A stretch of DNA of 64,000 bases from Bryobacterales bacterium (lineage in GTDB: Bacteria; Acidobacteriota; Terriglobia; Bryobacterales; UBA6623). The stretch lies in NCBI GenBank assembly GCA_965208945.1, contig OZ242366.1:2040483-2104482 (forward strand). Direction: 5' to 3'. Each line of letters starts with the position of its first letter. Position 1 is the first letter of the stretch. The translations under genes were made by a program, and so were the position numbers. Positions 6,350 to 24,785 of this stretch are shown in pieces. Under the pieces are notes generated by a model. It searched no databases. It saw only the letters and a program-made list of their open reading frames with translations, and had not been told where the DNA came from.

Positions 6350-6352
6350 CAT

Positions 6353-7762: not shown

Positions 7763-7852
7763 AGGCTCCGCTCGCAACAACAATCCTTTTCCACACGGAG
7801 TGGTCCTCGCCGGATTCGGCAGCCGAGGCTGTCAATGCCGGGTCGACGCCCG

Positions 7853-9304
7853 TCAGGTAAGAATCTCTTTGATCACGCGGGCCGGGTATTGGTCGATGAG
7901 GCGCTCGTCGAGTCCGTGGCGCTTGTAGGTCAGCTCGCGGGCATCCATGCCGAGTTGATGGAGGAACGTGGCATGCAGATCGTGCACGCTGACTCGATCT
8001 TCGGCGGCGTGGTAGCCGATCTCGTCAGTGGAGCCGTGCGTGTAGCCGCGCTTGATGCCTCCGCCGGCCATCCAGATGCTGAAGCCCATGGGACCGTGGT
8101 CGCGGCCGGAGCTGTAGCCCGCCCTTTCTTGCGAGACGGGCATGCGGCCGAATTCACCGCCCCATAGCACAAGCGTTTTGTCGAGCAGCCCGCGCTGCTT
8201 GAGGTCCGTGAGCAGCGCCGCCACCGGCTTGTCGGTCTTGCCGCAACTGTAGTCGAGGCTCTTTTGGAGATCCGAGTGACTGTCCCAGATTTGGTATTCG
8301 ATGAAGAGTTGAACGAACCGCACGCCGCGCTCGACAAGACGCCGGGCCATTAGGCAGCGGGTGCCGTAGGACCTTGTCTGCTCGTCGTCGAGTCCGTACA
8401 TCTCCTTGGTCTTCTCGCTCTCTTGGGAAAGGTCGAGAGCGTCCGTCGCTTCGACCTGCATCCTCGCAGCCAGCTCATAGCTGGCAATGCGAGCGTCGAG
8501 CTCGGGATATCGCGGTCGTTGTCCTCGATGGCTTTCGTCCAGCCGGCGGAGAAGGTCTCGCTCGGCCTGCACCAGCGGGGAGGGGAGGTCCTGTTCCGGC
8601 TTGAGGTTCAACAACGGCGGGCCTTCGGAGCGAAAGCGCGTTCCTTGGAATTCCGGCGGGAGCCAACCGGCCTGCCAATTCTGGATGCCATTGACGGGCA
8701 GCTTCTTGGGATCGTCGAGCACGACATAGCCGGGCAGGTTCTGATTCTCGCTGCCCAATCCGTAGGTTACCCAGGAACCGAGCGCCGGCCGTCCGGGCAA
8801 TGTCCGTCCGGAGTGCATCAAATACAGCGACGGCTCGTGGTTGAAGTGCTCGCCATGCATCGAGCGAATCAGTGTGATGTCATCGACGCGCTTCGCCAAG
8901 TGGGGCAGCGCCTCGGAGACATCCATTCCGCACTCGCCATGCTTGGCGAACTTGTACGGCGACGGCAGAAAGTTGCCGGCCTGTTGGGGGTTCTCAAGCC
9001 GATTGAGGATGTCGCGCGGCGCTTTCTTCCCGGCGTACTTCTCGAGGGTCGGTTTCGGATCGAACAGATCGACTTGGCTCGGGCCGCCGTTCATGAACAG
9101 ATGAATCACCGAAGTGGCCTGCGGCTCGAAGTGCGGTTTGCGCGGCTGAAAACCATGAATCCGCGTCGCCGCGGCTGCAGTGGAAGGTCTCGAATAGAGG
9201 TCGGTTCCCAGCAGCGTTGCGAGGGCGGCGCCGTGTACTCCGTCGCTGATCCGCGAGAAGAAGTCTCGGCGGCTTACCTTTCGGGGTGTCGGTTTCATAT
9301 CCAT
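7853..9304 (-). CDS. DUF1501 domain protein (Tat signal)
   Basis: 483-aa ORF with SRRDFFSRISDG twin-arginine leader. Clearly paralogous to 6353..7762 (e.g. GSEFGRTP vs GGEFGRMP, HDLHAT shared). 22 nt downstream of its DUF1553 partner. Confidence 0.9.
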   Translation of the reverse strand: MDMKPTPRKVSRRDFFSRISDGVHGAALATLLGTDLYSRPSTAAAATRIHGFQPRKPHFEPQATSVIHLFMNGGPSQVDLFDPKPTLEKYAGKKAPRDILNRLENPQQAGNFLPSPYKFAKHGECGMDVSEALPHLAKRVDDITLIRSMHGEHFNHEPSLYLMHSGRTLPGRPALGSWVTYGLGSENQNLPGYVVLDDPKKLPVNGIQNWQAGWLPPEFQGTRFRSEGPPLLNLKPEQDLPSPLVQAERDLLRRLDESHRGQRPRYPELDARIASYELAARMQVEATDALDLSQESEKTKEMYGLDDEQTRSYGTRCLMARRLVERGVRFVQLFIEYQIWDSHSDLQKSLDYSCGKTDKPVAALLTDLKQRGLLDKTLVLWGGEFGRMPVSQERAGYSSGRDHGPMGFSIWMAGGGIKRGYTHGSTDEIGYHAAEDRVSVHDLHATFLHQLGMDARELTYKRHGLDERLIDQYPARVIKEILT

Positions 9305-9326
9305 CGCTCGACTCCTCTCTGCGTGC

Positions 9327-12294: not shown

Positions 12295-13617
12295 CTACGT
12301 AAGTCCTCCAAGCGGCCGCGAGATGTCGGCCAGGCTCTCGAGCGGCGCTCCCATGCGCTCGGCGATCGAGAGATAAAGCCCCGCCAGCGACGTGTCCTGA
12401 GGATAGGCGATTGTGCGTCCAGTGCGAATCGTCCCGTTTCCGCCACCGGCAAAAATCAGAGGCAGGTCGTGACAGGTGTGCTTGTTGCCGTCCTTGAGGC
12501 CGGATCCCATCACGATCATCGAGTGATCGAGCAGGGTCCCCTCACCTTCGTGAATCGAGTCCATGCGCTCCAGGAAATAGGCCAACTGCTCGACGTGCCA
12601 GCGATTGATCGCCTCGTATTGCACCATGATTTCGGGCTTTTCCTGATGATGCGAGGTAGCGTGCCACTGCTCCGTTACGCCGGGCAGGAAACTGAAATTG
12701 CCGCTGCAGCCGCCGTTCTCGAACATGAACGTGGCGATCCGGGTCTGATTCATCTGGAATGCCAGCACAATCAGATCCAACATCAGCCGCACATGCTCCT
12801 GGCGGTCCTCGGGCATGCGCTCCGGCCGGGCCGGTTGCGGGACGCCCTCTGCTGGCGTCCAACGCTCAGCACCCGCTCGGTCGGCTTGATCGATGCGATC
12901 TTCGACTTCACGGACCGACGTGAGAAACTCGTCGAGTTTTTCACGATCGGGTCGGCTGACGTGCCGCTGCAGGTCTTTCGCCTGGTCATGCACCGCGTCC
13001 AGAATGCTCTTGTTGCGCTGCTGTTTCTCCTTGTCTGCGAACAGCAGATCGAATGCGAAGCGCGGGTCGATCTCCTTGCCGGCGGGCTGCGATGGCGACT
13101 TCCAGGAGATATAGGAACGATAGACCGAAGAATAATCGGTCTGAATCTTTGAATCCGGTTTGATGCCGAGGCACAGCGAGGGCAACGGTGTCTCGTTGCC
13201 GATCTTCTTCACCATGAGCTGATCGAGAGAAGTGCCGACTCTGAGGCGATTCCCTTCGATTTTGTAGTTCTCGACACCCGACAGGAACCCTGAGGTCTTG
13301 CCGGAGTGCGCGGATCGGCTATCCAGCCGCTCGTGCCACAGACCCGATGGAATGATGACCTTGCGCTTGATCGCTTCGAGTGGTTGCAGGATTCGGCTCA
13401 ACTGGAAGTTGTCGCCTTCACCGGTCGCTCCCCACTGCTCGGTCTCCACGCCATTCGGAAAGTAAAACGCCGCGAAGCGGGTTGGCGGTTGCGATGACGG
13501 CTTGAGCCGAGCGGACGCTCCGAAGGCGGGAATCGATTCGAGCCAGGGAAGAAACAGCGTGGTGCCGACGCCCTTGAGGAAGGCCCGGCGTCCGACGAAG
13601 CTTTGAGCCATTTTCAT
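12295..13617 (-). CDS. DUF1552 domain protein
   Basis: 440-aa ORF. N-terminus GRRAFLKGVGTTLFLPWLESI is the typical DUF1552 Tat-like leader. 4-nt overlap with the upstream DUF1592-type gene. Confidence 0.85.
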   Translation of the reverse strand: MKMAQSFVGRRAFLKGVGTTLFLPWLESIPAFGASARLKPSSQPPTRFAAFYFPNGVETEQWGATGEGDNFQLSRILQPLEAIKRKVIIPSGLWHERLDSRSAHSGKTSGFLSGVENYKIEGNRLRVGTSLDQLMVKKIGNETPLPSLCLGIKPDSKIQTDYSSVYRSYISWKSPSQPAGKEIDPRFAFDLLFADKEKQQRNKSILDAVHDQAKDLQRHVSRPDREKLDEFLTSVREVEDRIDQADRAGAERWTPAEGVPQPARPERMPEDRQEHVRLMLDLIVLAFQMNQTRIATFMFENGGCSGNFSFLPGVTEQWHATSHHQEKPEIMVQYEAINRWHVEQLAYFLERMDSIHEGEGTLLDHSMIVMGSGLKDGNKHTCHDLPLIFAGGGNGTIRTGRTIAYPQDTSLAGLYLSIAERMGAPLESLADISRPLGGLT

Positions 13618-16600
13618 CTTTCAGTCCTCCCCTGCACTGCCTGAGTGCTCGTGCTCTCGACTCTTGCTGTTGGCGCCACCTGCCGATAGCGGAATTGGCG
13701 GCTTTCTACAATCGACTGGACAGCCGCCGAAAACCGATATCCGTTAGTCTTCAGGTTCGTCTCCATTGTACGCAAGATTCCGAGGTCTTGAAAGGTCAAA
13801 CTGCGCGCAAGTGCGTAGGCCAGCAGTCGCCGGCAAAATGTCCGGATAAACTTCTTCTTCTCGCGGCCAGACAGCAGAGCTTGCTTGACATCTCTTAGCG
13901 AACCGACCGCCGTACCGTTGGGCAGCTCGGCCCGTGTGTCGACTGCCTGACCGGTCCGCTCGTCCGTCACGCGGAAACGGCCGATCGCGTCGAAATTTTC
14001 CAAGGCGAAGCCCAGCGGATCAAGCCGTCGATGGCACGCCGCGCAGCTTGGAGCCCGCCGATGTGCTTCGAGTTGATCCCGGAACGACACGGGCATGGCC
14101 TCGTCCTCTGTCTCCTGCAATTGGCCGGAAGCGTCAGGCGGCGGAGGGGGAGGAGGGCTGTCGAGCAGGTTCTTCAGGATGTAAAGGCCTCGATCGACCG
14201 GGCTTGTCCGAGCCGGATGCGACGTCAGCGTCAACACGCTCGCCATGCCCAGAATGCCTCCCCGATCGACGTCCCGAAGCTCGACGCGCCGCATCTCGGG
14301 ACCTTCGATCCCCGAGATTCCGTAATGCGCCGCCAACTCCTCATTCACGTACGTGAAATCACAATCGATGAGTTCCAGGATGCTACGGTCTTCTCGGATC
14401 ACCTCTTGCATGAACAGCAGGGCTTCCTGATACATCGCTTCCCTCAGCGATTCCGTATACGCCGGGAAGAGTTCTTGATTGGTCTCCTGATGCTCGCGAA
14501 TATCCCGGAACTCGAGCCAGTGGCCGGCAAATTGATCGGCCAGCGCAACCGAACGCCGGTCACGCAGCATCCGCTCGGTCTGCTCGCGCAACGACGATAC
14601 CTCGCCGAGTTGTCCCTCAGCAGCCAGACGGCGCAATTCCTCGTCCGGCATCGTAGACCAAAGGAAGTAAGACAGTCGGGACGCCAACTCGAATGGATCG
14701 ACTTCTCGAACCGCGCCCCCCTCTCGCTCCCGCTCCGACACGTAAAGGAATTGGGGTGAAACCAATACGCTCTCCGCTACGAACCGGGCGGCATCGTAGC
14801 TGTAAGCCTTGTCGTCCTGGATGTACTTGTCGTAGAGGTCCATCAGTCTTCTGCTCTCGTCGGACCGCAAGGGCCGCCGAAATGCCTTTGTGGCCAGGGC
14901 CTTCAACTGAAATTCGTATGCCTGACGCAAGCGGCTTTCCCCCTCGACCAGCAGTTGGTCGAGAAACTCGACCTGCGCTTTTGCCTCATCACCCGCGAGT
15001 TCTCGAACATCCTGAAGCGTCAGCACCCGCTCGGCGTAGTCTTTGGCGATCATTCTGCGCTCCCAGTTCAGCGCTTGTTCAGTCATTTCGCGGACGTAGC
15101 GGGGCTCTGCACTGGCAAGCAAATACTCTTCCCACCGGCGCAACAACTCGCTCTTTGCCTCGGCCTCGCCGGAGAGCAACATTTCCGCGGCGATGGCAGG
15201 GTGAAGATGAAAGACGCCGCGTTCCGGCGGTTGTCCCGGTTTCTCGGTTGCAATCTGCACCCAGCGATCAGCGCTTGGAAAGTAGTCGCTGACGAAATCT
15301 TCCAGGTAGCGCCGGAATTGCCGGAACTGAGTGCGGTTCGAGAAAGTAAGGCGGGATCCCGGGATGAAGTCAAGACTCTCCGGCCGTGTGGTGGAGACCT
15401 GAAACTGCACCATGCCGTCGTCAAACCATTTGCGGCGCTCCTGATCGGGATGCGTCCGAGATATATCCTGCATGACCCCCCTGACGGTGAATATCGCAGC
15501 ACCATCAGGAACCTGGAACGCCAACAGCGAAGGTGCCCGTACCGCCAAGGCGTGGTCCCACGAGATCGTATTCTCTCGGTAAAGCGGGTTCTCCAAGTTC
15601 ATTCGGGATGGTTCTTCGTAGAGGCGGTTGCGGACCGTCCTCAGATAAGACGCCTGCGTGAAGATGTGCAGGGGGCCGCCCCGACTATTGATCCCGCGGG
15701 CCAGGCGGCCGTCTCCCGATATTGCCTCAACCGGGTCTGATTCGGCCAAAGATCGCACCGACCCATCACGAAATCGAAAGGCTCCATCGAGCCAGGCGGC
15801 GTAGTCAGAGCCGCTTTCTTCCCCGCCGTCGGTTACCAACAGATAAATCATCGATTGACCGGTGGTGTCTATTTCGAAGGGATGACTGTGGTCGCCCCCG
15901 GGTAGCGAGTAGGTGTAGTCGACATCCTCGCGAAAGGTATCGAGCACTGCCTGGAAACGCTTCGCCGCTTGCTCGACCTGGGGCCGGAGTCGAACCGCTT
16001 CCTCCGGATCGCCGCCAGGCGGCAGGTTCTGGAACGGTTCGAAGAGTGCGTCGAAATGTGCTCGAAACTCCCCGAACTGCTCGAAATCCACGCCTTTCCC
16101 ATCAGCGTGAAAATTCTTGTAATCCAGACCCAGGAATCGAGAGAGACGTTGCAGCACTTCGGCGTCGACCCCGTGCCGCCGTGCCGCCTCGTTCCATTGA
16201 GCATCGTCTTTGACATCACCGAGACTCTTGGCTTCCCAAGCTGCGACAAAATACCGCGGAAGGGCGTTCCCCCTCATTTCCAGGTGTTGCCTGACGACGG
16301 CGTCGTAATATTCGCCCAACTCGACCGCAGCGCGGTGAACCCGCTCCGAATGGCGGATCGGCTGCGGCGGCTCCTCGTGAAAGACGAAGCCCCTCGTCGG
16401 CGAAACCTCGGCATGGGAAAGTACGAGCTGCGATGCGCTGACCAGCTTCTCAAGATCCGACGAAGAGAGGAACAGGCTATTGCCGTTGTTCGGCAAGCCG
16501 TCTTCACTCATCCCGTCGGCCGGCAGTAAGCGCGTGACGTCAATCGCGGCGCCCGTCAGGTCACGGAGGGTGTTTCGGAATTCGGCGCGATTCAAGCGGC

Positions 16601-17036
16601 GCACCAGTGGAGCGCTTGGCTCGTCGAGCCCTCTCAGATCCGCTGTTTCAAGTTGATGGTCAATCCAATCGGTCAAAAACCTCCGCCGTTCGTCGCTGGG
16701 ATGAACGGCATGTCCCGTCGGCGGCATGCTGCGTGTAATAACTTGCTCCGCCACCGTTTCCCAGCGCCGGAAGTCCCTGACGAGCGAATCGGGATACTCG
16801 GCCAGTAGTCGTTCAAGGTCGAAGCCTGCAACCTTGACAGTGCTGGCGTGGCAGACATAACAATTCGTCTCGAACAGCGGGCGGACGTGCTGCTCGAACC
16901 GCGCTTTTTCGATCGATGGTATTTCCGGAGGTTGATCCGCTTGCAAAATCTGTGCGCCGAGGAACAGCACCAGCGCCCCGGCCGCCGTGAACGGGAGCAG
17001 TCGGCGGAAGTGCACGTTTGGGACGATCTGCTTCAT
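13614..17036 (-). CDS. DUF1592/DUF1595/DUF1587/DUF1588/DUF1585-type (PSCyt3-like) large secreted protein
   Basis: ORF 13614..17099. Preferred start is M22 (17036), which gives MKQIVPNVHFRRLLPFTAAGALVLFLGAQIL. N-terminal CYVCHA and C-terminal SCAACHRRLDPLGFALENFD motifs. It is the usual partner of DUF1552. Confidence 0.85.
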   Translation of the reverse strand: MKQIVPNVHFRRLLPFTAAGALVLFLGAQILQADQPPEIPSIEKARFEQHVRPLFETNCYVCHASTVKVAGFDLERLLAEYPDSLVRDFRRWETVAEQVITRSMPPTGHAVHPSDERRRFLTDWIDHQLETADLRGLDEPSAPLVRRLNRAEFRNTLRDLTGAAIDVTRLLPADGMSEDGLPNNGNSLFLSSSDLEKLVSASQLVLSHAEVSPTRGFVFHEEPPQPIRHSERVHRAAVELGEYYDAVVRQHLEMRGNALPRYFVAAWEAKSLGDVKDDAQWNEAARRHGVDAEVLQRLSRFLGLDYKNFHADGKGVDFEQFGEFRAHFDALFEPFQNLPPGGDPEEAVRLRPQVEQAAKRFQAVLDTFREDVDYTYSLPGGDHSHPFEIDTTGQSMIYLLVTDGGEESGSDYAAWLDGAFRFRDGSVRSLAESDPVEAISGDGRLARGINSRGGPLHIFTQASYLRTVRNRLYEEPSRMNLENPLYRENTISWDHALAVRAPSLLAFQVPDGAAIFTVRGVMQDISRTHPDQERRKWFDDGMVQFQVSTTRPESLDFIPGSRLTFSNRTQFRQFRRYLEDFVSDYFPSADRWVQIATEKPGQPPERGVFHLHPAIAAEMLLSGEAEAKSELLRRWEEYLLASAEPRYVREMTEQALNWERRMIAKDYAERVLTLQDVRELAGDEAKAQVEFLDQLLVEGESRLRQAYEFQLKALATKAFRRPLRSDESRRLMDLYDKYIQDDKAYSYDAARFVAESVLVSPQFLYVSEREREGGAVREVDPFELASRLSYFLWSTMPDEELRRLAAEGQLGEVSSLREQTERMLRDRRSVALADQFAGHWLEFRDIREHQETNQELFPAYTESLREAMYQEALLFMQEVIREDRSILELIDCDFTYVNEELAAHYGISGIEGPEMRRVELRDVDRGGILGMASVLTLTSHPARTSPVDRGLYILKNLLDSPPPPPPPDASGQLQETEDEAMPVSFRDQLEAHRRAPSCAACHRRLDPLGFALENFDAIGRFRVTDERTGQAVDTRAELPNGTAVGSLRDVKQALLSGREKKKFIRTFCRRLLAYALARSLTFQDLGILRTMETNLKTNGYRFSAAVQSIVESRQFRYRQVAPTARVESTSTQAVQGRTER

Positions 17037-17353
17037 ATCGGAACCGCGTCTCCCCGCTTCCTCGCGCCTCCTCGGCGCTGGGCCTACTACAAGATACATC
17101 TATTGGAACTCGCCTGCTCTCGACGGAAGGGCCTATGGACGAGAACCGGGAAGCGGGCGTTGCGGGTCCGATGTTCAGCCTCTCCGATCTGGATCGAACT
17201 GCTCGAACTGGTGAGCCCCCCTGAGTGTAGTGCCAGAGAGGAGAGTGCACACGAGCTGAATCAGGAAAAACGGGTCGCCTCGTACAATTGGAAAGGAGAG
17301 GAACGGCACACAGAGCATCAGGAAGGAGCCCGCAGCATGGCTCGCAAAACAAG

Positions 17354-17962
17354 ATGGCACACTACCAATTCTTGGTTGACACCTACGAAACCGAGCGCTT
17401 GAAAGTGCTCAGTGTTTGGAGCATGTTCAAAGACGAACACCTTCCCTTTCGACCGCACCCGACAGATCCCCGTGGACGCAGCGTTCATGAACAGATGGTG
17501 CACCAATGCGTGAGTGAGAACCTATGGTTCATGAGCATCCTGGGCATCGACGTGGGCGCTCCCCCTCTGCCGGAAAACGAAACCAGGCTTGCGTTCATCG
17601 AGCGCTACGCAGAGGACTCCGGTAAGCGGCTTGATGCGTTACGTGACAAAGACGACCCCTGGTGGGAGGAGAGGGTAACATTCTTCGAAGAGCTTCGCTC
17701 ACGCGCGTGGGTGATGGTGCGTCGTATCGCTCACACCGCCCATCACCGCGGCCAGCAGACGGCGTTGCTGCGTATGCTCGATTGCCGCCTGCACAGCACC
17801 TACGGCCCCACGGCCGACACCGACGGGCTGATGCAGAACAAGGCCCCGGTCATCTACGCCTATCCGGACCTCGACACTCTGCTCGAGGGCGAGGCCTCCA
17901 GTGGGGCCAAGGCGCCCCTTCCTGGTCCGGGTGACAAACCGCCGACAGAACGGCCCTGCTGA
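17354..17962 (+). CDS. DinB-family (four-helix-bundle metalloenzyme-like) protein
   Basis: ORF 17288..17962; likely start M23 (MAHYQFLVDTYETERLKVL). C-terminal HTAHHRGQQTALLRML is the DinB-superfamily histidine motif. Confidence 0.75.
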   Translation: MAHYQFLVDTYETERLKVLSVWSMFKDEHLPFRPHPTDPRGRSVHEQMVHQCVSENLWFMSILGIDVGAPPLPENETRLAFIERYAEDSGKRLDALRDKDDPWWEERVTFFEELRSRAWVMVRRIAHTAHHRGQQTALLRMLDCRLHSTYGPTADTDGLMQNKAPVIYAYPDLDTLLEGEASSGAKAPLPGPGDKPPTERPC

Positions 17963-18048
17963 GCTCTGTCCCGATCGTCCGCCCAAGGATACGGCCTTTC
18001 CCATCTTGCACCTGTTGAGGCGTAGTAACATGTAAGCTGTGAGGCGCA

Positions 18049-18070
18049 TTCTGTTCGCTTTCTGTTCGCT
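18049..18070 (+). promoter_or_regulatory. Perfect tandem 11-bp direct repeat (TTCTGTTCGCT x2) 19 nt upstream of the macrodomain gene; candidate operator
   Basis: Read directly: TTCTGTTCGCT at 18049-18059 and again at 18060-18070. The gene's ATG is at 18089. Confidence 0.4.
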
Positions 18071-18088
18071 GATGAGCTGGAGAGTCGC

Positions 18089-19015
18089 ATGATCACGTAT
18101 GTGAATGGAGACCTTCTCAAGTCACCTGCACATGTCTTGGTGAACACGGTCAACACCGTGGGGGTGATGGGTAAGGGCGTCGCCAAGGAGTTTAAGCGGC
18201 TATTCCCAAACATGTTTCGACAGTACCGCAACATCTGTGAAGACAAGAAGTTCGATATCGGCAACCTGTTCCTCTACAAGACCGCCAACAAATGGGTGCT
18301 CAACTTCCCGACCAAGAAACACTGGAGGAATCCATCCCGCCCTGAATACATTGAGAAAGGATTGCAGAAGCTTGTGTCGATCTACCTTGATGCTGGGATT
18401 TACGACCTGGCCATGCCCTTGCTCGGATGCGGACACGGAGAACTAGATTGGCCGACTCAGGTAAGGCCGATCGTCGAGAAGCACATGAAAAACCTTCCAA
18501 TAAATGTCTTCGTGCACTTTTACCCTCCTGGCCGGATACCAACTCCTGAGCATCGCAATATTGCAGAGATGGAGACTTGGCTCCGGTCAGAACCCGCACA
18601 TCTCCCTTTCGCCGAAGTGTGGTTGGATCTCTTACGGGTCCTTGAACGGAAGACGGAGTTCCAGACCTTGGCTGGAAAGAACAACAAGTTCAAGGCTATT
18701 GCTTCCGAGGATCCGCAAGGAATCTGGATCGAGGCCGACAAAAAAAAGGCTTTTGTGGATGCCTCGGGTCTTCTCGATTTCTGGCAGCAGCTAAGGTCCT
18801 ACGGCTTTACCTCGCGTCAGATCGCGCCGTCCGGCTTGTCTCGTAACTCCTACTACCTGATGCCCATTTTCGCCGAACTTAACTACGTGGCGGCGGCGAG
18901 TATCTCCGAATCGTACGAACGTTTGCGAAACGGCTCTGAGACCATCGGCCTTCAGTACGTGCCTCAGCCGCTAACCAGCCAGATGGGTCTGTTTAATGCC
19001 AGTGTGACTCTTTAG
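18089..19015 (+). CDS. TARG1/DarG-type macrodomain protein with a C-terminal domain of about 150 aa (putative antitoxin / ADP-ribosyl hydrolase)
   Basis: 308 aa. N-terminus ITYVNGDLLKSPAHVLVNTVNTVGVMGKGVAKEFKRLFP, then NFPTKKHWRNPSRPEYIEKGLQKL and DLAMPLLGCGHGELDW. These parallel TARG1 as recalled (ITYVKGDLF.., ITKKRASHKPTYENLQKSL, DLSMPRIGCGLDRLQW), including the catalytic Lys and Asp positions. Local G+C about 47%. Confidence 0.8.
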   Translation: MITYVNGDLLKSPAHVLVNTVNTVGVMGKGVAKEFKRLFPNMFRQYRNICEDKKFDIGNLFLYKTANKWVLNFPTKKHWRNPSRPEYIEKGLQKLVSIYLDAGIYDLAMPLLGCGHGELDWPTQVRPIVEKHMKNLPINVFVHFYPPGRIPTPEHRNIAEMETWLRSEPAHLPFAEVWLDLLRVLERKTEFQTLAGKNNKFKAIASEDPQGIWIEADKKKAFVDASGLLDFWQQLRSYGFTSRQIAPSGLSRNSYYLMPIFAELNYVAAASISESYERLRNGSETIGLQYVPQPLTSQMGLFNASVTL

Positions 19016-19024
19016 GATGACAAG

Positions 19025-20014
19025 TTGTCTCATGAGCGCAAGCAGGACCGTCATCGGATAATTGGTAAGCTGGACGATCTTGTTCGGAGGTACAGATACG
19101 ACGCACGTTCGTGGTGGCCGGACTTTTTATTTCACTACACCGAGCTGGAGAACACCATCTCGATCCTGAATAGTGGAGCCCTGTATAGCCGAGAGAAGGC
19201 GATAAGCCGAGGCCTGCTCAGTACGGATAGCGCCAGCGCCAGTGTACTGGTCAATACTTCACAGACTTACAAGAGCCACGCGCGACTTTATTTCCGTCCC
19301 AAGACACCTACTCAGTACTCGAACGAGGGGATTCGACCTCGCGACACTATCGTTTACGACGCTCACTGTGCTGTTCCAGTTTTTCTGCTCTTCGATTCCA
19401 GGGATGTGTTGACCCGTGAGAGCACACAATTTTCCAACGGCACTTTAGCAGGATTCAATCCAGGACGTATCGGATCGACAGCCTCCTTTTTCGAGAAAAT
19501 GCCTTTCAACAAGATCTATCACAACTCTTGGTTGCAAGACGACGAGAAGCAGGAGATCATAGCCAGCAGGCATGCTGAAGTGATTGTGCCGGGCCAGCTT
19601 GATCTGGGGCCACTTCGGTTTATTTGGTGCCGATCCGAAGCGGAGAAGGAAACTTTGATGTCACTTCTCAGCGAAACGCAGCGGAATGAATGGGCCAACA
19701 AGGTCTTTCATGGGAAGAAGTACGATCTATTCTTTTCGCGATGGTCATATGTGGATCGGGTCGCACTTGATGAAACCAGCGCCCGGTTTAGCTTCAACCG
19801 TAACTCGAAGACTCCTGAGCCTTTCGAATTAGAAGTGAGTATAGAAGACCATGACACTAGCCAAAGGTTGCGATGCCGAAAGGAAAACTTTAAGGCAGAT
19901 CAAGAGGTAAAGATTAGATTCCGAAACCCCATATCAAACTACACGATCGAACTGCACCTTGACGGCTGTCTTGCATACCATTGCGAGTACGAAGAAACCC
20001 CCGACTTATTTTAG
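19025..20014 (+). CDS. DarT-like (DUF4433-type) ADP-ribosyltransferase with an extra C-terminal domain of about 110 aa (putative toxin/effector)
   Basis: 329 aa. TTG start 7 nt after AGGA and 9 nt after the macro gene stop. Three DarT-like motifs with DarT-like spacing: LFHYTELENTISILNSGAL, ARLYFRPKTPTQY, SRHAEVIVPGQLDLGPLRFIWC (candidate catalytic Glu). Residues from about 215 to 329 lie beyond the ART core as judged from motif positions in DarT as I recall it. G+C about 45%. Confidence 0.65.
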   Translation: MSHERKQDRHRIIGKLDDLVRRYRYDARSWWPDFLFHYTELENTISILNSGALYSREKAISRGLLSTDSASASVLVNTSQTYKSHARLYFRPKTPTQYSNEGIRPRDTIVYDAHCAVPVFLLFDSRDVLTRESTQFSNGTLAGFNPGRIGSTASFFEKMPFNKIYHNSWLQDDEKQEIIASRHAEVIVPGQLDLGPLRFIWCRSEAEKETLMSLLSETQRNEWANKVFHGKKYDLFFSRWSYVDRVALDETSARFSFNRNSKTPEPFELEVSIEDHDTSQRLRCRKENFKADQEVKIRFRNPISNYTIELHLDGCLAYHCEYEETPDLF

Positions 20015-20272
20015 TTAAACTAATCTTTTAGTATAGGTTTGAATTGACCCATATCCCAGTATTTTTAAAGGAAAACGGTGTCAGCGGGCATAGTCGACTT
20101 CGCGAGCCGGCCCTTCCGGAGGGCCTGTGCAGCCAAACAGCGGAACTCCGGTGACATGCAGCGAAAAGAGGGATGGGCAGAGAACCTGCGTCAAAGTCGT
20201 TCTCTCCCGAGTGCTTCTCAGAGTCTCCTCTGGGACGCTGACCGTTGCAGAGACAGTAGCTGGTTCACTTCG

Positions 20273-21577
20273 TTACGGACGCACCACCGATCCGTCCATG
20301 CCGCGGACGGTCGTCCAATCCGCGTTGCGGTGATCGTCCACCAGTGGGTACTTTGCGGCGATCTGTTCTTTGAGGTCGATTCCCAATCCCGGCTTGTCGC
20401 TGCCGTAGAGGTAGCCGCCGCGAATCCGAGCGACGCCGGGCATCATTTCGTGGACCTCCTCTGGGAAGTCGTTTTCTTCCTGAATGCCGAAGCTTGGGAT
20501 CGTCAGGTCGACGTGGTAGGCAATGAGCTGATTGATCGGGTCGTTCTCGCCACCCTCCTGGAATGCCGTCCGCACGCCGAACTGCTCGCATAGCGCGGCG
20601 ATCTTCTTCGCCTGGGTGATCCCCCCGATCATCCCCACCCGGCCCCGGAAGAAATCGATCAGCCGATTCGCGATCAGCGGCCGCCATTCATGAGGATGCG
20701 TGAACAGCTCACCCATCGCCATGGGGGTCGTCGTCAGACCGCGAATCTGCTTGTAGTAGTCGATTTGTTCGGGCGGAAGGATATCCTCGACAAAAAACAT
20801 GCGAACCGGCTCGAAACGCTTCGCCAATTCGAGCGCCCCCCAGCCGGTAAGATGCTCGTGGACATCGTGCAGAAGCTTGACTTGCCCCCCGAGCTTGTCC
20901 CTCAGGTGCCTGAAGAGTTTCGGGATTGTGTCGATGTACGTCTCCTCATCGAACGCTTTGCCGCTGAAACCCGTTTCCGGGCGGCTGCCTTCCCCCGGCG
21001 GGATAAAACCGCCGCCGCCATACCCGCCCATCTGGACACGGACGTGCCGGAATCCCTTCTCCATCCAACTCCGCGCACTCTCGACGCAGGCGTCGAACGT
21101 CGGTCCCCCGGCATGCGCGTATAGAGGTACGGCTTCGCGGGCCTTGCCGCCGAGCAGTTGATAGACCGGCATGTTGGCGCGCTTGCCCTTGATGTCCCAT
21201 AGCGCGGAATCGAGCGCTGCCTGAATCACATTCGTGATCGGCCCGTTTCGCCAGTACGAACGGACATGGTTCGACTGCCAGAGATCCTCGATGCGATCCG
21301 GGTCTTTGCCGATCCAGAACGGCCGCATGTGCTTTTCAAGCGCAGCCTTCGCTGCCCAGGCCAGATAGCGGTTGTTGGCTGAACCGAGCCCGTAGAGCCC
21401 CGGCTCGTTCGTCAGCACCTTGATGAACACCCAGGAATAATACGGACGGGGGCTGACGCCGATGACCTTGACGTCCGTGATCTTCAACGGTGGCAGGCCG
21501 CGCGTCGCCTGCGAATACAGTTCCGACGCCCACCAGGGAGCTGCGAGCAACCCTCCCAGCAAATCTCTCCGTCGCAT
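20273..21577 (-). CDS. Enolase-superfamily enzyme (mandelate racemase / D-mannonate-galactonate dehydratase-like) with N-terminal Tat-like signal
   Basis: 434 aa. MRRRDLLGGLLAAPWWASELYSQ leader, then KITDVKVIGVSP..VFIKVLTNEPGLYGLGSA, typical of the ManD/RspA subgroup. Confidence 0.8.
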   Translation of the reverse strand: MRRRDLLGGLLAAPWWASELYSQATRGLPPLKITDVKVIGVSPRPYYSWVFIKVLTNEPGLYGLGSANNRYLAWAAKAALEKHMRPFWIGKDPDRIEDLWQSNHVRSYWRNGPITNVIQAALDSALWDIKGKRANMPVYQLLGGKAREAVPLYAHAGGPTFDACVESARSWMEKGFRHVRVQMGGYGGGGFIPPGEGSRPETGFSGKAFDEETYIDTIPKLFRHLRDKLGGQVKLLHDVHEHLTGWGALELAKRFEPVRMFFVEDILPPEQIDYYKQIRGLTTTPMAMGELFTHPHEWRPLIANRLIDFFRGRVGMIGGITQAKKIAALCEQFGVRTAFQEGGENDPINQLIAYHVDLTIPSFGIQEENDFPEEVHEMMPGVARIRGGYLYGSDKPGLGIDLKEQIAAKYPLVDDHRNADWTTVRGMDGSVVRP

Positions 21578-21662
21578 TGCGGTCCCTCCGAACAGGCTGA
21601 GCGGAATAAGGGCATCCTACCAGCTTGCCTATAATGGGTGGTTACTCGGGCCAAGAGGCGGC

Positions 21663-21929
21663 ATGCCCATCAGCGAAGATCTGCTAAGCATTCTGTGTTG
21701 CCCTCGCACGAAGGTGCCCGTGCAGATGCTGTCTGCGGATCGACTTGCGGCGTTGAATGCCAGGATCGATCAGGGCGGCGTGACCTGCCAAGGCGGCGAA
21801 CCCGTCGAGAAGCCGCTGCAGGAAGGGCTGATCACCGAGGACGGTGAAACCGTCTACCGCATCGATGACAGCATCCCGGTCATGCTTGTCGACCAGGCCA
21901 TCCCCGGCCACTTTGCGAGTTTGCCGTAG
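21663..21929 (+). CDS. Trm112 family (UPF0434) small protein
   Basis: ORF 21462..21929; true start likely M68 (21663): MPISEDLLSILCCPRTKVPV..YRIDDSIPVMLVDQAI, the Trm112/YcaR signature. Confidence 0.75.
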   Translation: MPISEDLLSILCCPRTKVPVQMLSADRLAALNARIDQGGVTCQGGEPVEKPLQEGLITEDGETVYRIDDSIPVMLVDQAIPGHFASLP

Positions 21930-22023
21930 CGCCGAAGGACGCTGGGACGCGTTCCGAAGCTATGCCGGTCTCAAGACCAGGCACCCCCTCACTGGCCAAG
22001 GACAACCTGTTGAGGTTCCACAG

Positions 22024-22546: not shown

Positions 22547-22704
22547 AGGTTTGGTTCGCGATGCTCAGCGTGCGAGAGCATTCTTTCTCTTCCGAAACCA
22601 GGAACTTGACAGTCTTCTCCCGTCGCCGGCCCGCTACGCAGCTATCTGGGCGAGACTACAGCCTTCTCGGAGTGCTTGGCGGCGCTGCAACTGAACCGAC
22701 GGCG

Positions 22705-23307
22705 TTACTGAATCGTGCTCGCTCCCTGAATGCCTTGATCGGCAGGTATCAGGTTGCGGTTGATATGGCGGTCCAGGTTAATCACGTAGGTCTCCGCCGC
22801 CCCGATCAAGACCGGAGAATGCGTGGCCGCAACGATCCGGAAACCCTTCTGGTCAACCAGTTCCTTCAGCATCTTGAGAGTGCGCCGCTGATTCGACGCC
22901 GACAAGGCCATTTCCGGCTCGTCGAGCAGGAGAACCGTGCCATTCGGCAATGTCGGAAACAAGTCCTTGAACATCGAGAGCATTACCTGCCCGTGACTGG
23001 CGGTGTCGATGAATTCCCGCATGGCCGTGTCATCTTTGAACATTTCGGACTGCATGCGGGGATTATGCAGTTCAGCATCAAACAGCAAGACCTTGGGCCA
23101 GTCCAACCCCTTCGGCTTGTCCAGCCGATAGGAGAACCCTTCTACGTTCTCTGCCCTGAGCGCGCGGTAGATCGAGTGCAGCAGCGTCGATTTGCCGGAA
23201 CCATTCTCGCCTTCCAGCATGATCAATGGATGGCTCAGGTCGACGATCATCGGCATATGAAAATCGAGACCCATGAAAACGGGGTGGCTGAGAATCTTGA
23301 GGAACAT
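22705..23307 (-). CDS. Small stand-alone ABC/AAA_21-type ATPase
   Basis: ORF 22705..23436; M44 (23307) preferred because it avoids overlap with the upstream gene. Walker A GENGSGKST, signature-like ASHGQ, Walker B LLLDEPE, H-loop ATHSP. About 200 aa with no fused effector domain. Confidence 0.75.
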   Translation of the reverse strand: MFLKILSHPVFMGLDFHMPMIVDLSHPLIMLEGENGSGKSTLLHSIYRALRAENVEGFSYRLDKPKGLDWPKVLLFDAELHNPRMQSEMFKDDTAMREFIDTASHGQVMLSMFKDLFPTLPNGTVLLLDEPEMALSASNQRRTLKMLKELVDQKGFRIVAATHSPVLIGAAETYVINLDRHINRNLIPADQGIQGASTIQ

Positions 23308-23393
23308 GGCTTCCGAATCCGGTGATCGTCTGTCTCTGACCCAAGCATAGCAAGCAGGAACTTCCAAAGGTTCCGTTTTCGCCTTGGAGAGCC

Positions 23394-24785
23394 TTACTTC
23401 GCCGCCCGCACCCTGAGCCGCACTCTGGACTCCCAATCAATCTCCGTACTACCTACCTGCGGACGGTTATCGATCACCAGGATGCCTCCCTTGCCGGCCT
23501 GTTGGTAGCCGGCTCGCGATCTGTTCACACGAACCTCGTAGGAGCGGCCTTCCTCGAGACCCACGACATAGATGGCCTTTCCCTCGGGGACCACTCGATC
23601 GAACGAAAGCGGCGGCTTACCGAAAAGCATCGCCCCGCCCGGAAACACCAGAGGAGCCTGCTTGTCTGTCGGCTCGATCACGTGTTCCTCGCCATCGGCC
23701 ACGATCAGTAGTCGGCCGTCGAAGTATCCGGCCCACAGGTCTTCTTCCTGCCAACCCATGCGGGCGTAGACACGGCCTTCAAACTCGTCATGAAACACCA
23801 GCGGCGCGGAGAAGTAACTCAGTCCCGGCAGGTACGGGTTCACCCACAGAAACTCGTATACGGCTCCGAGAGGCGTGTACAACGTGTATGCGTCATGCCG
23901 CACCCAGCCTTGTAGAAACTGATAATGCGAGAGCGTGTTCTCGTAGGCGACGAAGACCATCGCGGCAACCCGATTCAATGTTCCTTCAATGACCGCTGCG
24001 GACCTGTCGGTCTCCACAGGTAAACGGAATATGCCTTCCTCGGTGCGATGGGGGCGAGGCAACACACTCAGCATCAACCGCAATGGAAGAGCTCGAAAGA
24101 TATCTGATGCTTGGCCCCAGATCTCGATCTCGAAGTTGCGGCGCGCCACGTGGGAAAGCTCCGCCAACGCTACCAGTTCCGCGCTTGCTTGGAGCAACTC
24201 GCCTTTTTGCAGCAGCGGCAGCAGACGTGCTTCCCAATGATCTTTCATCAATGTCTGGAGAACGCGTTCATAGCCAACGTGGTCTTCCCCGACCGCAACA
24301 AGCGCCATGACGCCGCTCCGCACCCGCTCAAGACCGATTTCGTTCTTTCGGGAAAGACCTTCTGCGGCTGTGAAGAGCGCCTGGGCCACGCTCCGCTTTT
24401 GCTCGTCCGACAGCAGTTCGTGGCACCAATCAAAGACCACCGCTCCAAGACGCAGATGGTCAGGCTTCTCGAACCCTCCCGAATCCGCATCGCCGACAGC
24501 CCAGACAATCGCTTTCCGGCCTGATTCCGCATCGCCCGTAACTTGAAACAGCAACGCTTGTAGCAGGGGCTCCTCGGGGAATACGACATCCGCCTGTACG
24601 AGTCTTTGGAGATTCCGCCAACGCTCGGATTGCCGCTCGACGTCCTTGCGCAGCCGATTCAGCCGCCGCCCTTCCAGCCAGAGCCGCGGATGCGACGTGT
24701 AGACCTTGTAGTCCGCCTGCGCGATGAGCAGAGAAGAGAAGAGCAGGCTAAGTGTCGCAATACAGAGGAGCCGCTTCATTCTCAA
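23394..24785 (-). CDS. Secreted hypothetical protein (possibly heparinase II/III-like alpha/alpha-toroid fold)
   Basis: 463 aa with signal peptide MRMKRLLCIATLSLLFSSLLIAQA. The HPRLWL motif near the N-terminus resembles polysaccharide-lyase family N-termini. Function is uncertain. Confidence 0.7.
   Translation of the reverse strand: MRMKRLLCIATLSLLFSSLLIAQADYKVYTSHPRLWLEGRRLNRLRKDVERQSERWRNLQRLVQADVVFPEEPLLQALLFQVTGDAESGRKAIVWAVGDADSGGFEKPDHLRLGAVVFDWCHELLSDEQKRSVAQALFTAAEGLSRKNEIGLERVRSGVMALVAVGEDHVGYERVLQTLMKDHWEARLLPLLQKGELLQASAELVALAELSHVARRNFEIEIWGQASDIFRALPLRLMLSVLPRPHRTEEGIFRLPVETDRSAAVIEGTLNRVAAMVFVAYENTLSHYQFLQGWVRHDAYTLYTPLGAVYEFLWVNPYLPGLSYFSAPLVFHDEFEGRVYARMGWQEEDLWAGYFDGRLLIVADGEEHVIEPTDKQAPLVFPGGAMLFGKPPLSFDRVVPEGKAIYVVGLEEGRSYEVRVNRSRAGYQQAGKGGILVIDNRPQVGSTEIDWESRVRLRVRAAK

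Follow-up and report, generated by a model that had tools for sequence, protein, structure and literature searches.

Two co-directional genes lie 9 nt apart in the window, by which we mean the whole 64,000-nt stretch of Bryobacterales DNA that was analysed, and both open reading frames and the junction between them read as the initial annotation had claimed; all features given below are on the (+) strand. Gene 1 (18089..19015) opens with ATG and encodes a 308-aa protein, the antitoxin candidate, in which a predicted macrodomain ADP-ribosyl glycohydrolase precedes a clade-specific C-terminal domain. Gene 2 (19025..20014) opens with TTG and encodes a 329-aa protein, the toxin candidate, predicted to be an extended DarT-family ADP-ribosyltransferase whose family members measure 320-340 aa. 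The junction reads CTT TAG GAT GAC AAG TTG, with the stop codon at 19013-19015 and the start codon at 19025-19027, and an AGGA at 19014..19017, overlapping the gene 1 stop and placed 7 nt before the TTG, is the candidate ribosome-binding site of gene 2. Homologues begin with M-SH(E/K)RKQD, which supports the TTG as start, and the two frames mostly overlap by 4 or 1 nt in homologous loci, which is consistent with translational coupling of gene 2.

A non-coding leader (18011..18085) accompanies the module in a Bryobacterales sub-lineage and is a candidate promoter/operator. It holds a tandem 11-mer, TTCTGTTCGCT, in two copies at 18049-18070, and is kept in loci L016 and L017, the latter with different flanks. 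Tandem repeats of this kind are not general in the clade to which the pair belongs (8/76 loci vs 7/68 control windows), so that a clade-wide operator was ruled out and the operator idea holds for the Bryobacterales sub-lineage only. Scanning with consensus patterns returned no sigma-70 promoter at the pair, the consensus being uninformative for Acidobacteriota, and no terminator downstream of gene 2. From the sequence read and the GC profile, an AT-rich 3' tail (20015..20075) closes the islet, host-like GC resuming at about 20076. The neighbours in the window are housekeeping genes (DinB-like, enolase-superfamily) and not a defence island.

[quoted passage not shown] No other 2-kb stretch of the window has a lower GC, and its value lies over 4 SD under the mean. 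Thus, the initial annotation was right about a GC dip, and none in the window is deeper, but the values given for it (45-47% vs 65-68%) were wrong, the contrast being ~9-10 points (50% vs 59.5%) rather than ~20, an overstatement of about two-fold. Another drop in GC, at ~49.9 kb, is slight and falls mostly between genes.

Domain composition of the two proteins

The N-terminal part of gene 1 (18089..18532, aa 1-148) had been read as a DarG/TARG1-type macrodomain, and the motifs quoted for it are present. It matches Pfam Macro at 1.5e-16 and, among solved structures, the DarG proteins of T. aquaticus (5m31, 4.5e-37) and M. tuberculosis (5m3i, 1.4e-34), followed by TARG1 (4.5e-10), while the predicted model superimposes on 5m3e with a Foldseek E of 1.1e-15, a TM of 0.85 and 44% identity. 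K76 (codon 18314-18316), in FPTKKHW, aligns with the catalytic K80 of T. aquaticus DarG and is conserved in all 66 relatives (66/66). Dedicated antitoxin profiles are matched over their N-terminal halves only, positions 1-155/329 for PADLOC DarG (1.6e-60) and 1-159/338 for NCBIfam antitoxin_DarG (NF048014), where the 191.7 bits fall below the cut-off of 250. The macrodomain is of DarG type, all other macrodomain classes being far more distant, and the entire protein belongs to a large conserved family of ~300-315 aa.

The C-terminal domain of gene 1 (18533..19012, aa 149-308) is of mixed alpha/beta composition and presumably binds and neutralises the toxin. As had been noted, these ~150 residues carry no Pfam, NCBIfam or PADLOC assignment. 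A profile built from 17 family members had no PDB match at E<=10, and hhalign against six canonical DarG C-terminal domains gave a probability of 0.1%; nor did gene 1 match the M. tuberculosis DarG-CTD 7yk3_B, which a canonical DarG C-terminal domain, used as control, matches at 1.3e-24. Homology to the canonical DarG C-terminal domain was rejected on the hhalign probability together with the zero PDB matches. The Foldseek list for gene 1 was filled by macrodomain matches and does not cover the C-terminal fold separately. The domain has its own conserved motifs (EH, WLRSEP..LPF.EVW.D and FWQQLR..GF), a mean identity of 46.5% within the family, and family medians of -5 for net charge and 5.25 for pI, the window copy being mildly acidic only (net charge -1, pI 6.18). 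It is detected in 72 of 77 loci, and at locus L023 the antitoxin consists of the macrodomain only, so that an antitoxin can in some cases do without the C-terminal domain.

The N-terminal helix and transferase (ART) domain of gene 2 (19025..19711, aa 1-229) contain the three motifs on which its earlier assignment to DarT/DUF4433 was based. Profile searches support that assignment, with 75.5 bits and 6.3e-21 for Pfam PF14487 (cut-off 22.5, profile positions 1-192/201) and 7.1e-9 for PADLOC DarT; NCBIfam toxin_DarT (NF048013) gives 25.2 bits, under its equivalog cut-off of 150. A single-sequence phmmer search of PDB sequences reached no solved DarT, and the structural link came from the family profile and from structure prediction. 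The profile aligns aa 34-215 with Thermus DarT2 (7omv, 3.3e-5), E185 falling on the E160A position, and the AlphaFold model (pLDDT 93.4, pTM 0.92) has a DarT-like ART fold, with Thermus DarT 7omy (E 1.1e-11, target TM 0.74) and M. tuberculosis DarT 7yk3 (E 1.7e-9) among its Foldseek matches. By hhalign, the ART domain relates to DarT2 (99.1%, E 1e-18) and hardly to DarT1 (21%, 30 columns), and an affinity with DarT1 was dropped for a DarT2-like one.

In the alignment with Thermus DarT2, residues H37 (19133-19135), Y89 (19289-19291) and E185 (19577-19579), in the motifs FHYT, LYFRPKTP and HAEVIV, correspond to H13, Y71 and E160. Their conservation is high, as the initial annotation had anticipated for a true family member: Y89 and E185 are kept in 66/66 relatives and H37 in 59/66, the other seven having Arg. 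Gene 2 is thus a divergent DarT with an H-Y-E triad. With a pI of 8.8 the ART domain is basic, and its mean pairwise identity is 44.9%. Beyond the triad, a methionine is essential in both DarT1 (M71) and DarT2 (M78), where Met78 stabilises the oxocarbenium and Arg51 abstracts a proton (PMC11543638). The position of this methionine is occupied in the clade by an invariant threonine (T96, 66/66), and sequence alignment gives no equivalent of the proton-abstracting R51/R52, the invariant R56 and R87 being candidates for a structural one. Considering both features, the chemistry or the target may differ.

The remainder of gene 2 (19712..20011, aa 230-329) is predicted to form a seven-stranded FN3/Ig-like beta-sandwich, confidently modelled, with DSSP strands at 243-323. 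Its description as beta-rich and family-less holds, given that Pfam, NCBIfam and PADLOC all lack a match, and its Foldseek matches, at E ~6e-4, include FN3 domains as well as 6oe6. The region is mildly acidic (pI 5.4), is present in essentially all clade members and evolves fast (mean pairwise identity 25.5% vs 44.9% for the ART domain), and is a candidate partner-, trigger- or target-recognition module. A mirror-tree/partial-correlation test of the toxin domains against the antitoxin C-terminal domain gave indistinguishable values (partial r 0.19-0.27), singling out no domain pair. Both extra regions, at the C-termini of toxin and antitoxin, are clade-specific.

Distribution and neighbourhoods of the antitoxin-first clade

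Of 2,459 DarT-like representatives detected by profile, 830 (50%-identity clusters), or about one in three, belong to the clade at E<=1e-30. The clade occurs in 314 of 185,579 species genomes, patchily scattered over many phyla (Acidobacteriota, Chloroflexota, Planctomycetota, Bacillota, Pseudomonadota and others). The macro gene stands immediately upstream of the DarT gene, on the same strand, in 77/77 testable loci, and the same order was seen in the 6/6 loci inspected individually, so that both genes co-occur throughout the survey. The layout reported as atypical does differ from the canonical one; it is not one genome's oddity, however, but the fixed architecture of a large clade. No third gene is conserved, the commonest flanking family appearing in at most 8/80 loci.

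Some copies reside on conjugative Rhizobium and Agrobacterium plasmids, adjoining SIR2+ATPase and a reverse transcriptase, or TIR and VapBC; others adjoin NERD/Fic, an E2-CBASS gene or transposases. Of these neighbours, SIR2, TIR, NERD and the CBASS E2 gene are contextual hints of phage defence. Phage carriage found no support: a tblastn search with gene 2 across 50,697 phage records gave no match, no PHROG was found for gene 2 and generic macro PHROGs only for gene 1, and Foldseek returned weak, low-TM matches among viral models. In R. binae the toxin gene is IS-disrupted and the macro gene intact, and in the closest relative a nonsense codon interrupts the toxin while the antitoxin is intact. 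Such decay, in which the toxin goes first and the antitoxin is kept, is what one would expect if the two genes are toxin and antitoxin.

A relative at ~91% nucleotide identity carries the pair at the same site with the same neighbours, which indicates that acquisition was not recent; no empty insertion site was found. In line with the initial annotation, the window contains no tRNA and the pair has no flanking direct repeats, apart from chance-level short matches. A recent insertion with recognisable ends was rejected, since tRNA, integrase and meaningful flanking repeats are missing and the site is common to the ~91% relative. Judging by its low GC, its patchy distribution and the copies on plasmids and beside conflict genes, the cassette is horizontally mobile across phyla, and an old resident in this Bryobacterales-like genome.

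Relation to known DarT systems

Adjacent co-directional genes for a DarT-family protein and an ADP-ribose eraser, by which DarTG is recognised, are present here, and both PADLOC models match. DarT2 and DarG carry out reversible thymidine ADP-ribosylation, with neutralisation through a C-terminal DarT-binding domain of the antitoxin (PMC11543638). With DarTG2 the pair shares the DarT ART with its H-Y-E residues, a DarG/TARG1-type macrodomain with a catalytic Lys, the two-gene operon, an antitoxin made of a catalytic N-terminal domain and a C-terminal domain of ~150 aa, and the occurrence on plasmids and in defence contexts. By contrast, the gene order is reversed: the toxin-first order taken as canonical was confirmed, DUF4433 preceding macro in 7/7 plasmid DarTG2 loci, although it is typical of the DarTG family rather than strictly defining. 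[quoted passage not shown] Thus, the view that this is not a textbook DarTG is upheld by order, toxin length and antitoxin domain alike.

With DarTG1 the pair has in common the DarT-family ART and an N-terminal 'LFHFT...G.L.SR' motif that includes an Arg equivalent to DarT1 R35. The eraser here is a macrodomain and no NADAR is present, while the DarTG1 locus L096 (n=1) has DarT1 followed by a true NADAR (PF22397, 2.8e-92), that is, the toxin first; DarT1 profile similarity is weak, and DarT1 structures are absent among the top structural matches to gene 2. DarHTG (Liu-DS3), composed of DarT, an ARH-type DarG3 and the UvrD-like helicase DarH (PMC13069673), resembles the pair in being DarT-based with antitoxin or accessory parts unlike those of the two classical subfamilies, and offers an earlier example of DarT combined with exchanged modules. 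The pair lacks a helicase or other conserved third gene, and its eraser is a macrodomain, whereas that 'DarG3' is an unrelated ARH-type protein. Literature searches beyond the founding defence paper (PMC9250638) found no named DarT3/DarTG3 and no antitoxin-first clade. Classical type II toxin-antitoxin systems offer the antitoxin-first order, tight coupling or overlap, mobility and toxin-first decay; they differ in that the antitoxin here is predicted to be an enzyme reversing the product of the toxin (type IV-like), and in that Pfam and PDB profile searches of gene 1 found no recognisable DNA-binding domain for autoregulation.

Probable function, alternatives and significance

Within the macrodomain-associated (DarTG2-like) DarTG systems the antitoxin-first clade forms a branch of its own, and the pair is probably a self-contained two-gene toxin-antitoxin cassette belonging to it. 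Toxicity, neutralisation, a DNA target and phage defence are what we infer for it. Gene 2 would attach a single ADP-ribose from NAD+ to a base in nucleic acid, to judge from its homology to DarT2 most probably thymidine in ssDNA, and so block replication, and the gene 1 macrodomain, strongly homologous to DarG, would remove the ADP-ribose via K76. Position, co-occurrence and charge suggest that the gene 1 C-terminal domain binds and blocks the toxin in place of the canonical DarG C-terminal domain, and the cassette most likely has a neutralisation interface different from that of DarTG2. The antitoxin would be translated first and the toxin coupled to it, across the 9-nt gap here and the 4- or 1-nt overlaps elsewhere. 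Were the toxin freed, for example because phage infection or cassette loss had depleted the antitoxin or displaced it, the cell would stop growing or undergo abortive infection. The fast-evolving beta-sandwich, held rigidly against the ART domain in the predicted model, may be the likeliest site of antitoxin docking, trigger sensing or target selection, a role that we put forward speculatively.

The same two-enzyme logic might instead serve another substrate, namely a different base, RNA or protein, chosen with the help of the beta-sandwich and cleared by the macrodomain, and this we consider rather unlikely. It draws on (i) T96 standing where DarT1 and DarT2 need Met, and R51/R52 being unaligned (PMC11543638), (ii) the N-terminal LFHFT...LxSR with invariant R56, which resembles DarT1 (R35) and not DarT2, (iii) the base switch already known within the family, from G in DarT1 to T in DarT2 (PMC11543638), (iv) the Pfam DarT scores, which at 75 bits place gene 2 nearer to DarT1 (55) than to canonical DarT2 (224), and (v) the activity of TARG1-type macrodomains on both protein-linked and thymidine-linked ADP-ribose, as described in PMC12945103, so that the macrodomain partner does not fix the target. 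Nonetheless, the ART domain is clearly nearer to DarT2 by profile and structure, the macrodomain is 44% identical to T. aquaticus DarG and stands much nearer to the DarG class than to others, and the base-contact N/S/T in 'FSxGNLA' is similar to 'SDGNAAAS' of the thymidine-specific M. tuberculosis DarT.

It is improbable that the two genes are a housekeeping writer/eraser pair tuning replication, repair or transcription, as proposed for M. tuberculosis DarTG, a system that coordinates growth and transcription there (PMC12170906). The chromosomal position, the metabolic and stress genes on either side, the stable retention at the same site in the ~91% relative, and the antitoxin-first coupling, which would hold activity low, are all compatible with such a role. 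However, the sporadic distribution, the low GC of the pair, neighbourhoods that vary and include plasmids and clusters of defence or toxin-antitoxin genes, and repeated inactivation of the toxin with retention of the antitoxin are better explained by a selfish or defence cassette than by a core regulator. An inactive relic of two intact-looking frames, suggested by the premature stop in the closest relative's toxin and by the consensus scans that gave no promoter or terminator, is very improbable, given that both window frames are full length, keep all catalytic and family-invariant residues and lie within well-conserved families.

Beyond the preferred reading as a DarTG2-like cassette, the clade might be a third functional DarT class, a proposal that we regard as unlikely. 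The T96 active site and the rigid beta-sandwich would then give a target or linkage beyond thymidine-N3 and guanine-N2, perhaps on another base, RNA or a protein-DNA complex, and the antitoxin would dock on the added toxin domain, neutralising it through a structurally new domain and not through the ssDNA mimicry described for DarG.

DarT toxins are the model for the enzymatic ADP-ribosylation of DNA bases, with roles in phage defence and in the growth control of M. tuberculosis, and mechanistic work so far has, to our knowledge, all dealt with the single-domain, toxin-first DarT1 and DarT2. The clade described here, large yet uncharacterised, differs from them where specificity and control are decided, that is, in the catalytic pocket, the added toxin domain, the replaced neutralisation domain and the inverted operon. 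Current equivalog models miss both proteins, whose annotation goes no further than 'DarT family' and 'macro domain-containing'. Work on a single member would tell whether the chemistry of DarT reaches further targets, and would also reveal a second, independent way of caging a DarT. With DarT now used as a genome-editing effector (PMC13368585), tools built on DarT could gain an orthogonal off-switch from this second solution, which could also help to predict phage counter-defences.

Gene pair and catalytic domains

The pair is best read, as inferred here, as a DarTG2-like toxin-antitoxin or defence cassette composed of a candidate antitoxin, gene 1 (18089-19015, + strand, ATG start, 308 aa), and a candidate toxin, gene 2 (19025-20014, + strand, TTG start, 329 aa). 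ORF calls placed both genes at the coordinates claimed by the initial annotation, and the junction sequence, CTT-TAG-GAT-GAC-AAG-TTG, contains the same stop (TAG, 19013-19015), AGGA and TTG (at 19025), with AGGA overlapping the gene 1 stop codon. TTG as the start of gene 2 is supported by its homologues, whose N-termini read M-SH(E/K)RKQD. G+C contents are 52.1% for gene 1, 49.5% for gene 2, 50.1% for the islet at 18005-20075, 60-61% for the flanking genes, and 59.5% for the whole window (mean 59.4%, SD 2.1, over 2-kb windows). The low-GC islet proposed earlier is therefore real, and the deepest dip of the 64-kb window, even though its contrast is smaller than hand counts had indicated. As also reported earlier, there are no tRNA genes in the window and no meaningful direct repeats flanking the pair.

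Profile and structure matches identify residues ~30-229 of gene 2 as a DarT-family ADP-ribosyltransferase (ART), in agreement with the DarT/DUF4433 assignment initially made from motifs. Gene 2 reaches 75.5 bits against Pfam PF14487 (cut-off 22.5), covering nearly the entire model, and 25 bits against NCBIfam toxin_DarT (cut-off 150), while a single-sequence search against PDB sequences found no DarT. At the sequence level, gene 2 is a divergent DarT. A family profile built from 42 sequences matches Thermus DarT2 (7omv) at 3.3e-5 over residues 34-215, and E185, in HAEVIV, falls on the position that is mutated (E160A) in the crystallised form of that enzyme. In Foldseek, the ART domain of the predicted model (pLDDT 93.4, pTM 0.92) matches Thermus DarT with E 1.1e-11 and a target TM of 0.74, and the DarT of M. 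tuberculosis with E 1.7e-9. Profile-profile comparison gave a probability of 99.1% (E 1e-18, 169 columns) with macro-associated DarT2, versus 21% with DarT1, confined to 30 N-terminal columns.

Across 66 genome-derived pairs, Y89, E185, R56, R87 and T96 are each conserved in 66/66 toxins. H37, Y89 and E185 are the counterparts of DarT2 H13, Y71 and E160 (residue roles from PMC11543638). The H37 position is His in 59 of the 66 clade toxins and Arg in the other 7 (among L016-L095), these seven being R-Y-E rather than H-Y-E, with Tyr and Glu unchanged. R56 occupies the position of DarT1 R35, where DarT2 has His (roles from PMC11543638), and the base-contact position (DarT2 H119, DarT1 N104; PMC11543638) corresponds to T140, which is N, S or T across the family and lies inside an 'FSxGNLA' motif resembling 'SDGNAAAS' of M. 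tuberculosis. T96 takes the place of an essential Met of DarT2 (M78) and DarT1 (M71) (PMC11543638), and no residue of gene 2 aligns with the proton-abstracting R51/R52 (PMC11543638). Considering both this active-site conservation and these departures, the enzyme looks active, but chemistry identical to that of DarT2 cannot be assumed. The Thr in place of Met, the missing R51 equivalent and a DarT1-like N-terminal motif motivate the main rival explanation, in which the same two-enzyme logic would act on a different substrate; we regard it as rather improbable. That the pair is an inactive relic is also unlikely.

Residues 1-148 of gene 1 form a DarG/TARG1-type macrodomain, as indicated by profile and structure matches to Pfam Macro (1.5e-16), PADLOC DarG (1.6e-60), T. 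aquaticus DarG 5m31 (4.5e-37), M. tuberculosis DarG 5m3i (1.4e-34) and human TARG1 (4.5e-10), and its AlphaFold model superimposes on 5m3e with a TM of 0.85 and 44% identity. The candidate catalytic Lys proposed previously withstands this comparison: K76, in FPTKKHW, corresponds to the catalytic residue K80 of T. aquaticus DarG, and all 66 independent homologues taken from genomes keep this Lys. The score against NCBIfam antitoxin_DarG, 191.7 bits, stays under the 250-bit cut-off, and both the PADLOC and NCBIfam DarG profiles end on gene 1 at ~residue 158 of their 329-338 positions.

Additional C-terminal domains

The last ~100 residues of gene 2 are predicted to fold as a seven-stranded beta-sandwich, whose best structural neighbours in Foldseek are, weakly (E ~6e-4), FN3/Ig-like domains and which finds no match in Pfam. 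The high pTM of the model suggests that it is packed on the ART domain rather than tethered to it. With a mean pairwise identity of 25.5%, versus 44.9% for the ART domain, the beta-sandwich evolves much faster. Its mildly acidic pI (~5.4) speaks against DNA binding as a general role.

The last ~150 residues of gene 1 are well conserved (46.5% mean identity), display the motifs EH, WLRSEP..LPF.EVW.D and FWQQLR..GF, and are predicted to adopt a mixed alpha/beta fold. At the family level this domain has a median net charge of -5 and a pI of 5.25, the window's own copy being mildly acidic (net charge -1, pI 6.18). A canonical DarG C-terminal domain matches DarG of the M. tuberculosis DarT-DarG complex (chain 7yk3_B, 1.3e-24), whereas neither gene 1 nor its family profile matches that chain, and the C-terminal family profile matches nothing. 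Moreover, hhalign comparison of gene 1-type and canonical DarG C-terminal alignments returned a probability of 0.1%. By these two results, the C-terminal domain of gene 1 is not the canonical DarT-binding domain of DarG.

Distribution and genomic setting

An exhaustive profile search over 1.84 billion representatives retrieved 2,459 DarT-like proteins at E<=1e-3, of which 830 reach E<=1e-30, and almost all of the top 150 are full-length. On the clade profile restricted to the ART domain, no canonical DarT2 protein scores above 64 bits, and from this we infer that the 830 are essentially the antitoxin-first clade. Nearly all gene 2 homologues are 320-340 aa long; P0287 (587 aa) and P0313 (395 aa) are clade members with a ~250-aa extra C-terminal and a ~65-aa extra N-terminal part, respectively. 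When one genome per species was scanned, 314 genomes proved to carry relatives; they belong to Acidobacteriota, Chloroflexota (Dehalococcoidia, Anaerolineae, Caldilineaceae), Planctomycetota, Latescibacterota, Nitrospirota, Bacillota, Verrucomicrobiota, NC10, Elusimicrobiota, Myxococcota and Pseudomonadota.

Eighty clade loci were kept, 77 of them with enough upstream sequence; a macrodomain gene lies directly upstream on the same strand in 77/77, and 72 of these have a recognisable antitoxin C-terminal domain of the window type. In most loci there is an overlap of 4 or 1 nt between the two ORFs. Six individually inspected loci, conjugative Rhizobium and Agrobacterium plasmids included, share the same order, and no third gene recurs beside the pair, the commonest flanking family occurring in 8/80 loci. 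One exception, L033, has an interrupted gene 1. [quoted passage not shown]

The closest match to the window is another Bryobacterales (Acidobacteriota) genome, L016, collinear with window positions 13107-21982 at ~91% nucleotide identity. The pair stands at the corresponding site there, flanked by DinB-like and enolase-superfamily genes, and acquisition thus predates the split of the two genomes. L017, a more remote copy from Bryobacterales (71% protein identity), lies amid transposase and other mobile genes. The window and L017 have in common a leader of ~75 nt (18011-18085), inside which a tandem 11-mer, TTCTGTTCGCT x2 (18049-18070), is repeated one helical turn apart, 19 nt 5' of the gene 1 ATG. 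L016 keeps this candidate operator or promoter element, and so does L017, slightly altered and between other flanks; it is specific to the Bryobacterales copies and not general in the clade.

Near the cassette, the Rhizobium acidisoli plasmid L005 (346-3362, 6727-7779) encodes SIR2 plus an ATP-binding protein (ATPase) and a reverse transcriptase, and the Agrobacterium leguminum plasmid L014 (1129-3259, 6478-7151) encodes TIR, a nucleotide-binding protein and Phd/VapC (VapBC). Both cassettes apparently lie in defence or toxin-antitoxin clusters. Conflict-related genes also adjoin an Alkalibacterium copy (NERD and Fic) and one further clade copy (an E2-CBASS gene). That the pair is a housekeeping regulator is unlikely.

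On Rhizobium binae plasmid p3 (L013, 4013-8244), an intact clade-type macro gene is followed by IS3 and IS66 transposases that replace most of the toxin gene, leaving a fragment (aa 27-141) and an orphaned antitoxin. In L016, gene 1 is intact and codon 285 of gene 2 (6853-6855), within the beta-sandwich, is an in-frame stop, which reflects decay of the toxin or else an error in the MAG assembly. The two cases show loss of the toxin while the antitoxin is kept, that of L016 with this reservation.

Elsewhere in the window, 22705-23436 (- strand) encodes a 243-aa minimal AAA_21/ABC-type ATPase, of which only the C-terminal part matches PADLOC ATPase models (AriA, PtuA, ATPase-Toprim). Next to it (22625-22693), the window lacks ~1.7 kb present in L016 (9481-11217), which holds a 387-aa ORF without family and a DUF4139-like ORF.

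Proposed mode of action and relationship to known systems

In the DarTG2-like reading, the gene 2 transferase would attach ADP-ribose to a nucleic-acid base, with thymidine in ssDNA as the most likely target, and the gene 1 macrodomain would take it off again. The basic transferase (pI 8.8) may be sequestered by the C-terminal domain of gene 1, conserved and generally acidic, which would stand in for the canonical DarT-binding domain, and coupled translation with the antitoxin first would hold the toxin in check. Candidate roles for the toxin beta-sandwich are antitoxin docking, trigger sensing and target selection.

The proposed working mode is like that of DarTG2, and both proteins belong to the macrodomain and DarT superfamilies, but gene 2 and gene 1 score below the equivalog cut-offs for DarT2 and DarG, respectively, and the antitoxin C-terminal domain and gene order of canonical DarTG2 are both absent. 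In 7/7 canonical plasmid loci DUF4433 (201-264 aa) precedes macro (225-363 aa), the reverse of the clade order. The one DarT1-NADAR locus examined is also toxin-first, unlike the antitoxin-first clade, and the locus here has no NADAR partner; it likewise lacks the helicase and ARH-type DarG3 of DarHTG (PMC13069673). In the reviews and primary papers searched, DarTs are described as essentially single-domain (PMC12945103), and NADAR, macrodomain and ARH are the only partner classes recognised. No description of an antitoxin-first, extended DarT clade was found in the literature searched, which did not cover the founding defence paper.

Two plasmid loci were also observed. On the Klebsiella quasipneumoniae 8.6-kb plasmid L009 (884-2357), the pair is toxin-first and of unusual lengths (264 aa for DUF4433, 225 aa for macro), and its DarT, with the top score among canonical-order DarTs on the clade ART profile (63.6 bits), may for that reason be an intermediate form. 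The Hymenobacter sp. NBH84 plasmid L015 (1-4032) encodes a DarT-family-annotated protein of ~1,690 aa (record coordinates 4314-9389) with 26% identity to residues 6-197 of gene 2 and a different, multidomain DarT architecture.

The labels 'DarT family' and 'macro domain-containing' are already attached to the two proteins in public annotation, and the PADLOC models for both of them match. The locus is a variant of the known DarTG kind, not a new system, and would become more notable if its target or its mode of neutralisation turned out to be different.
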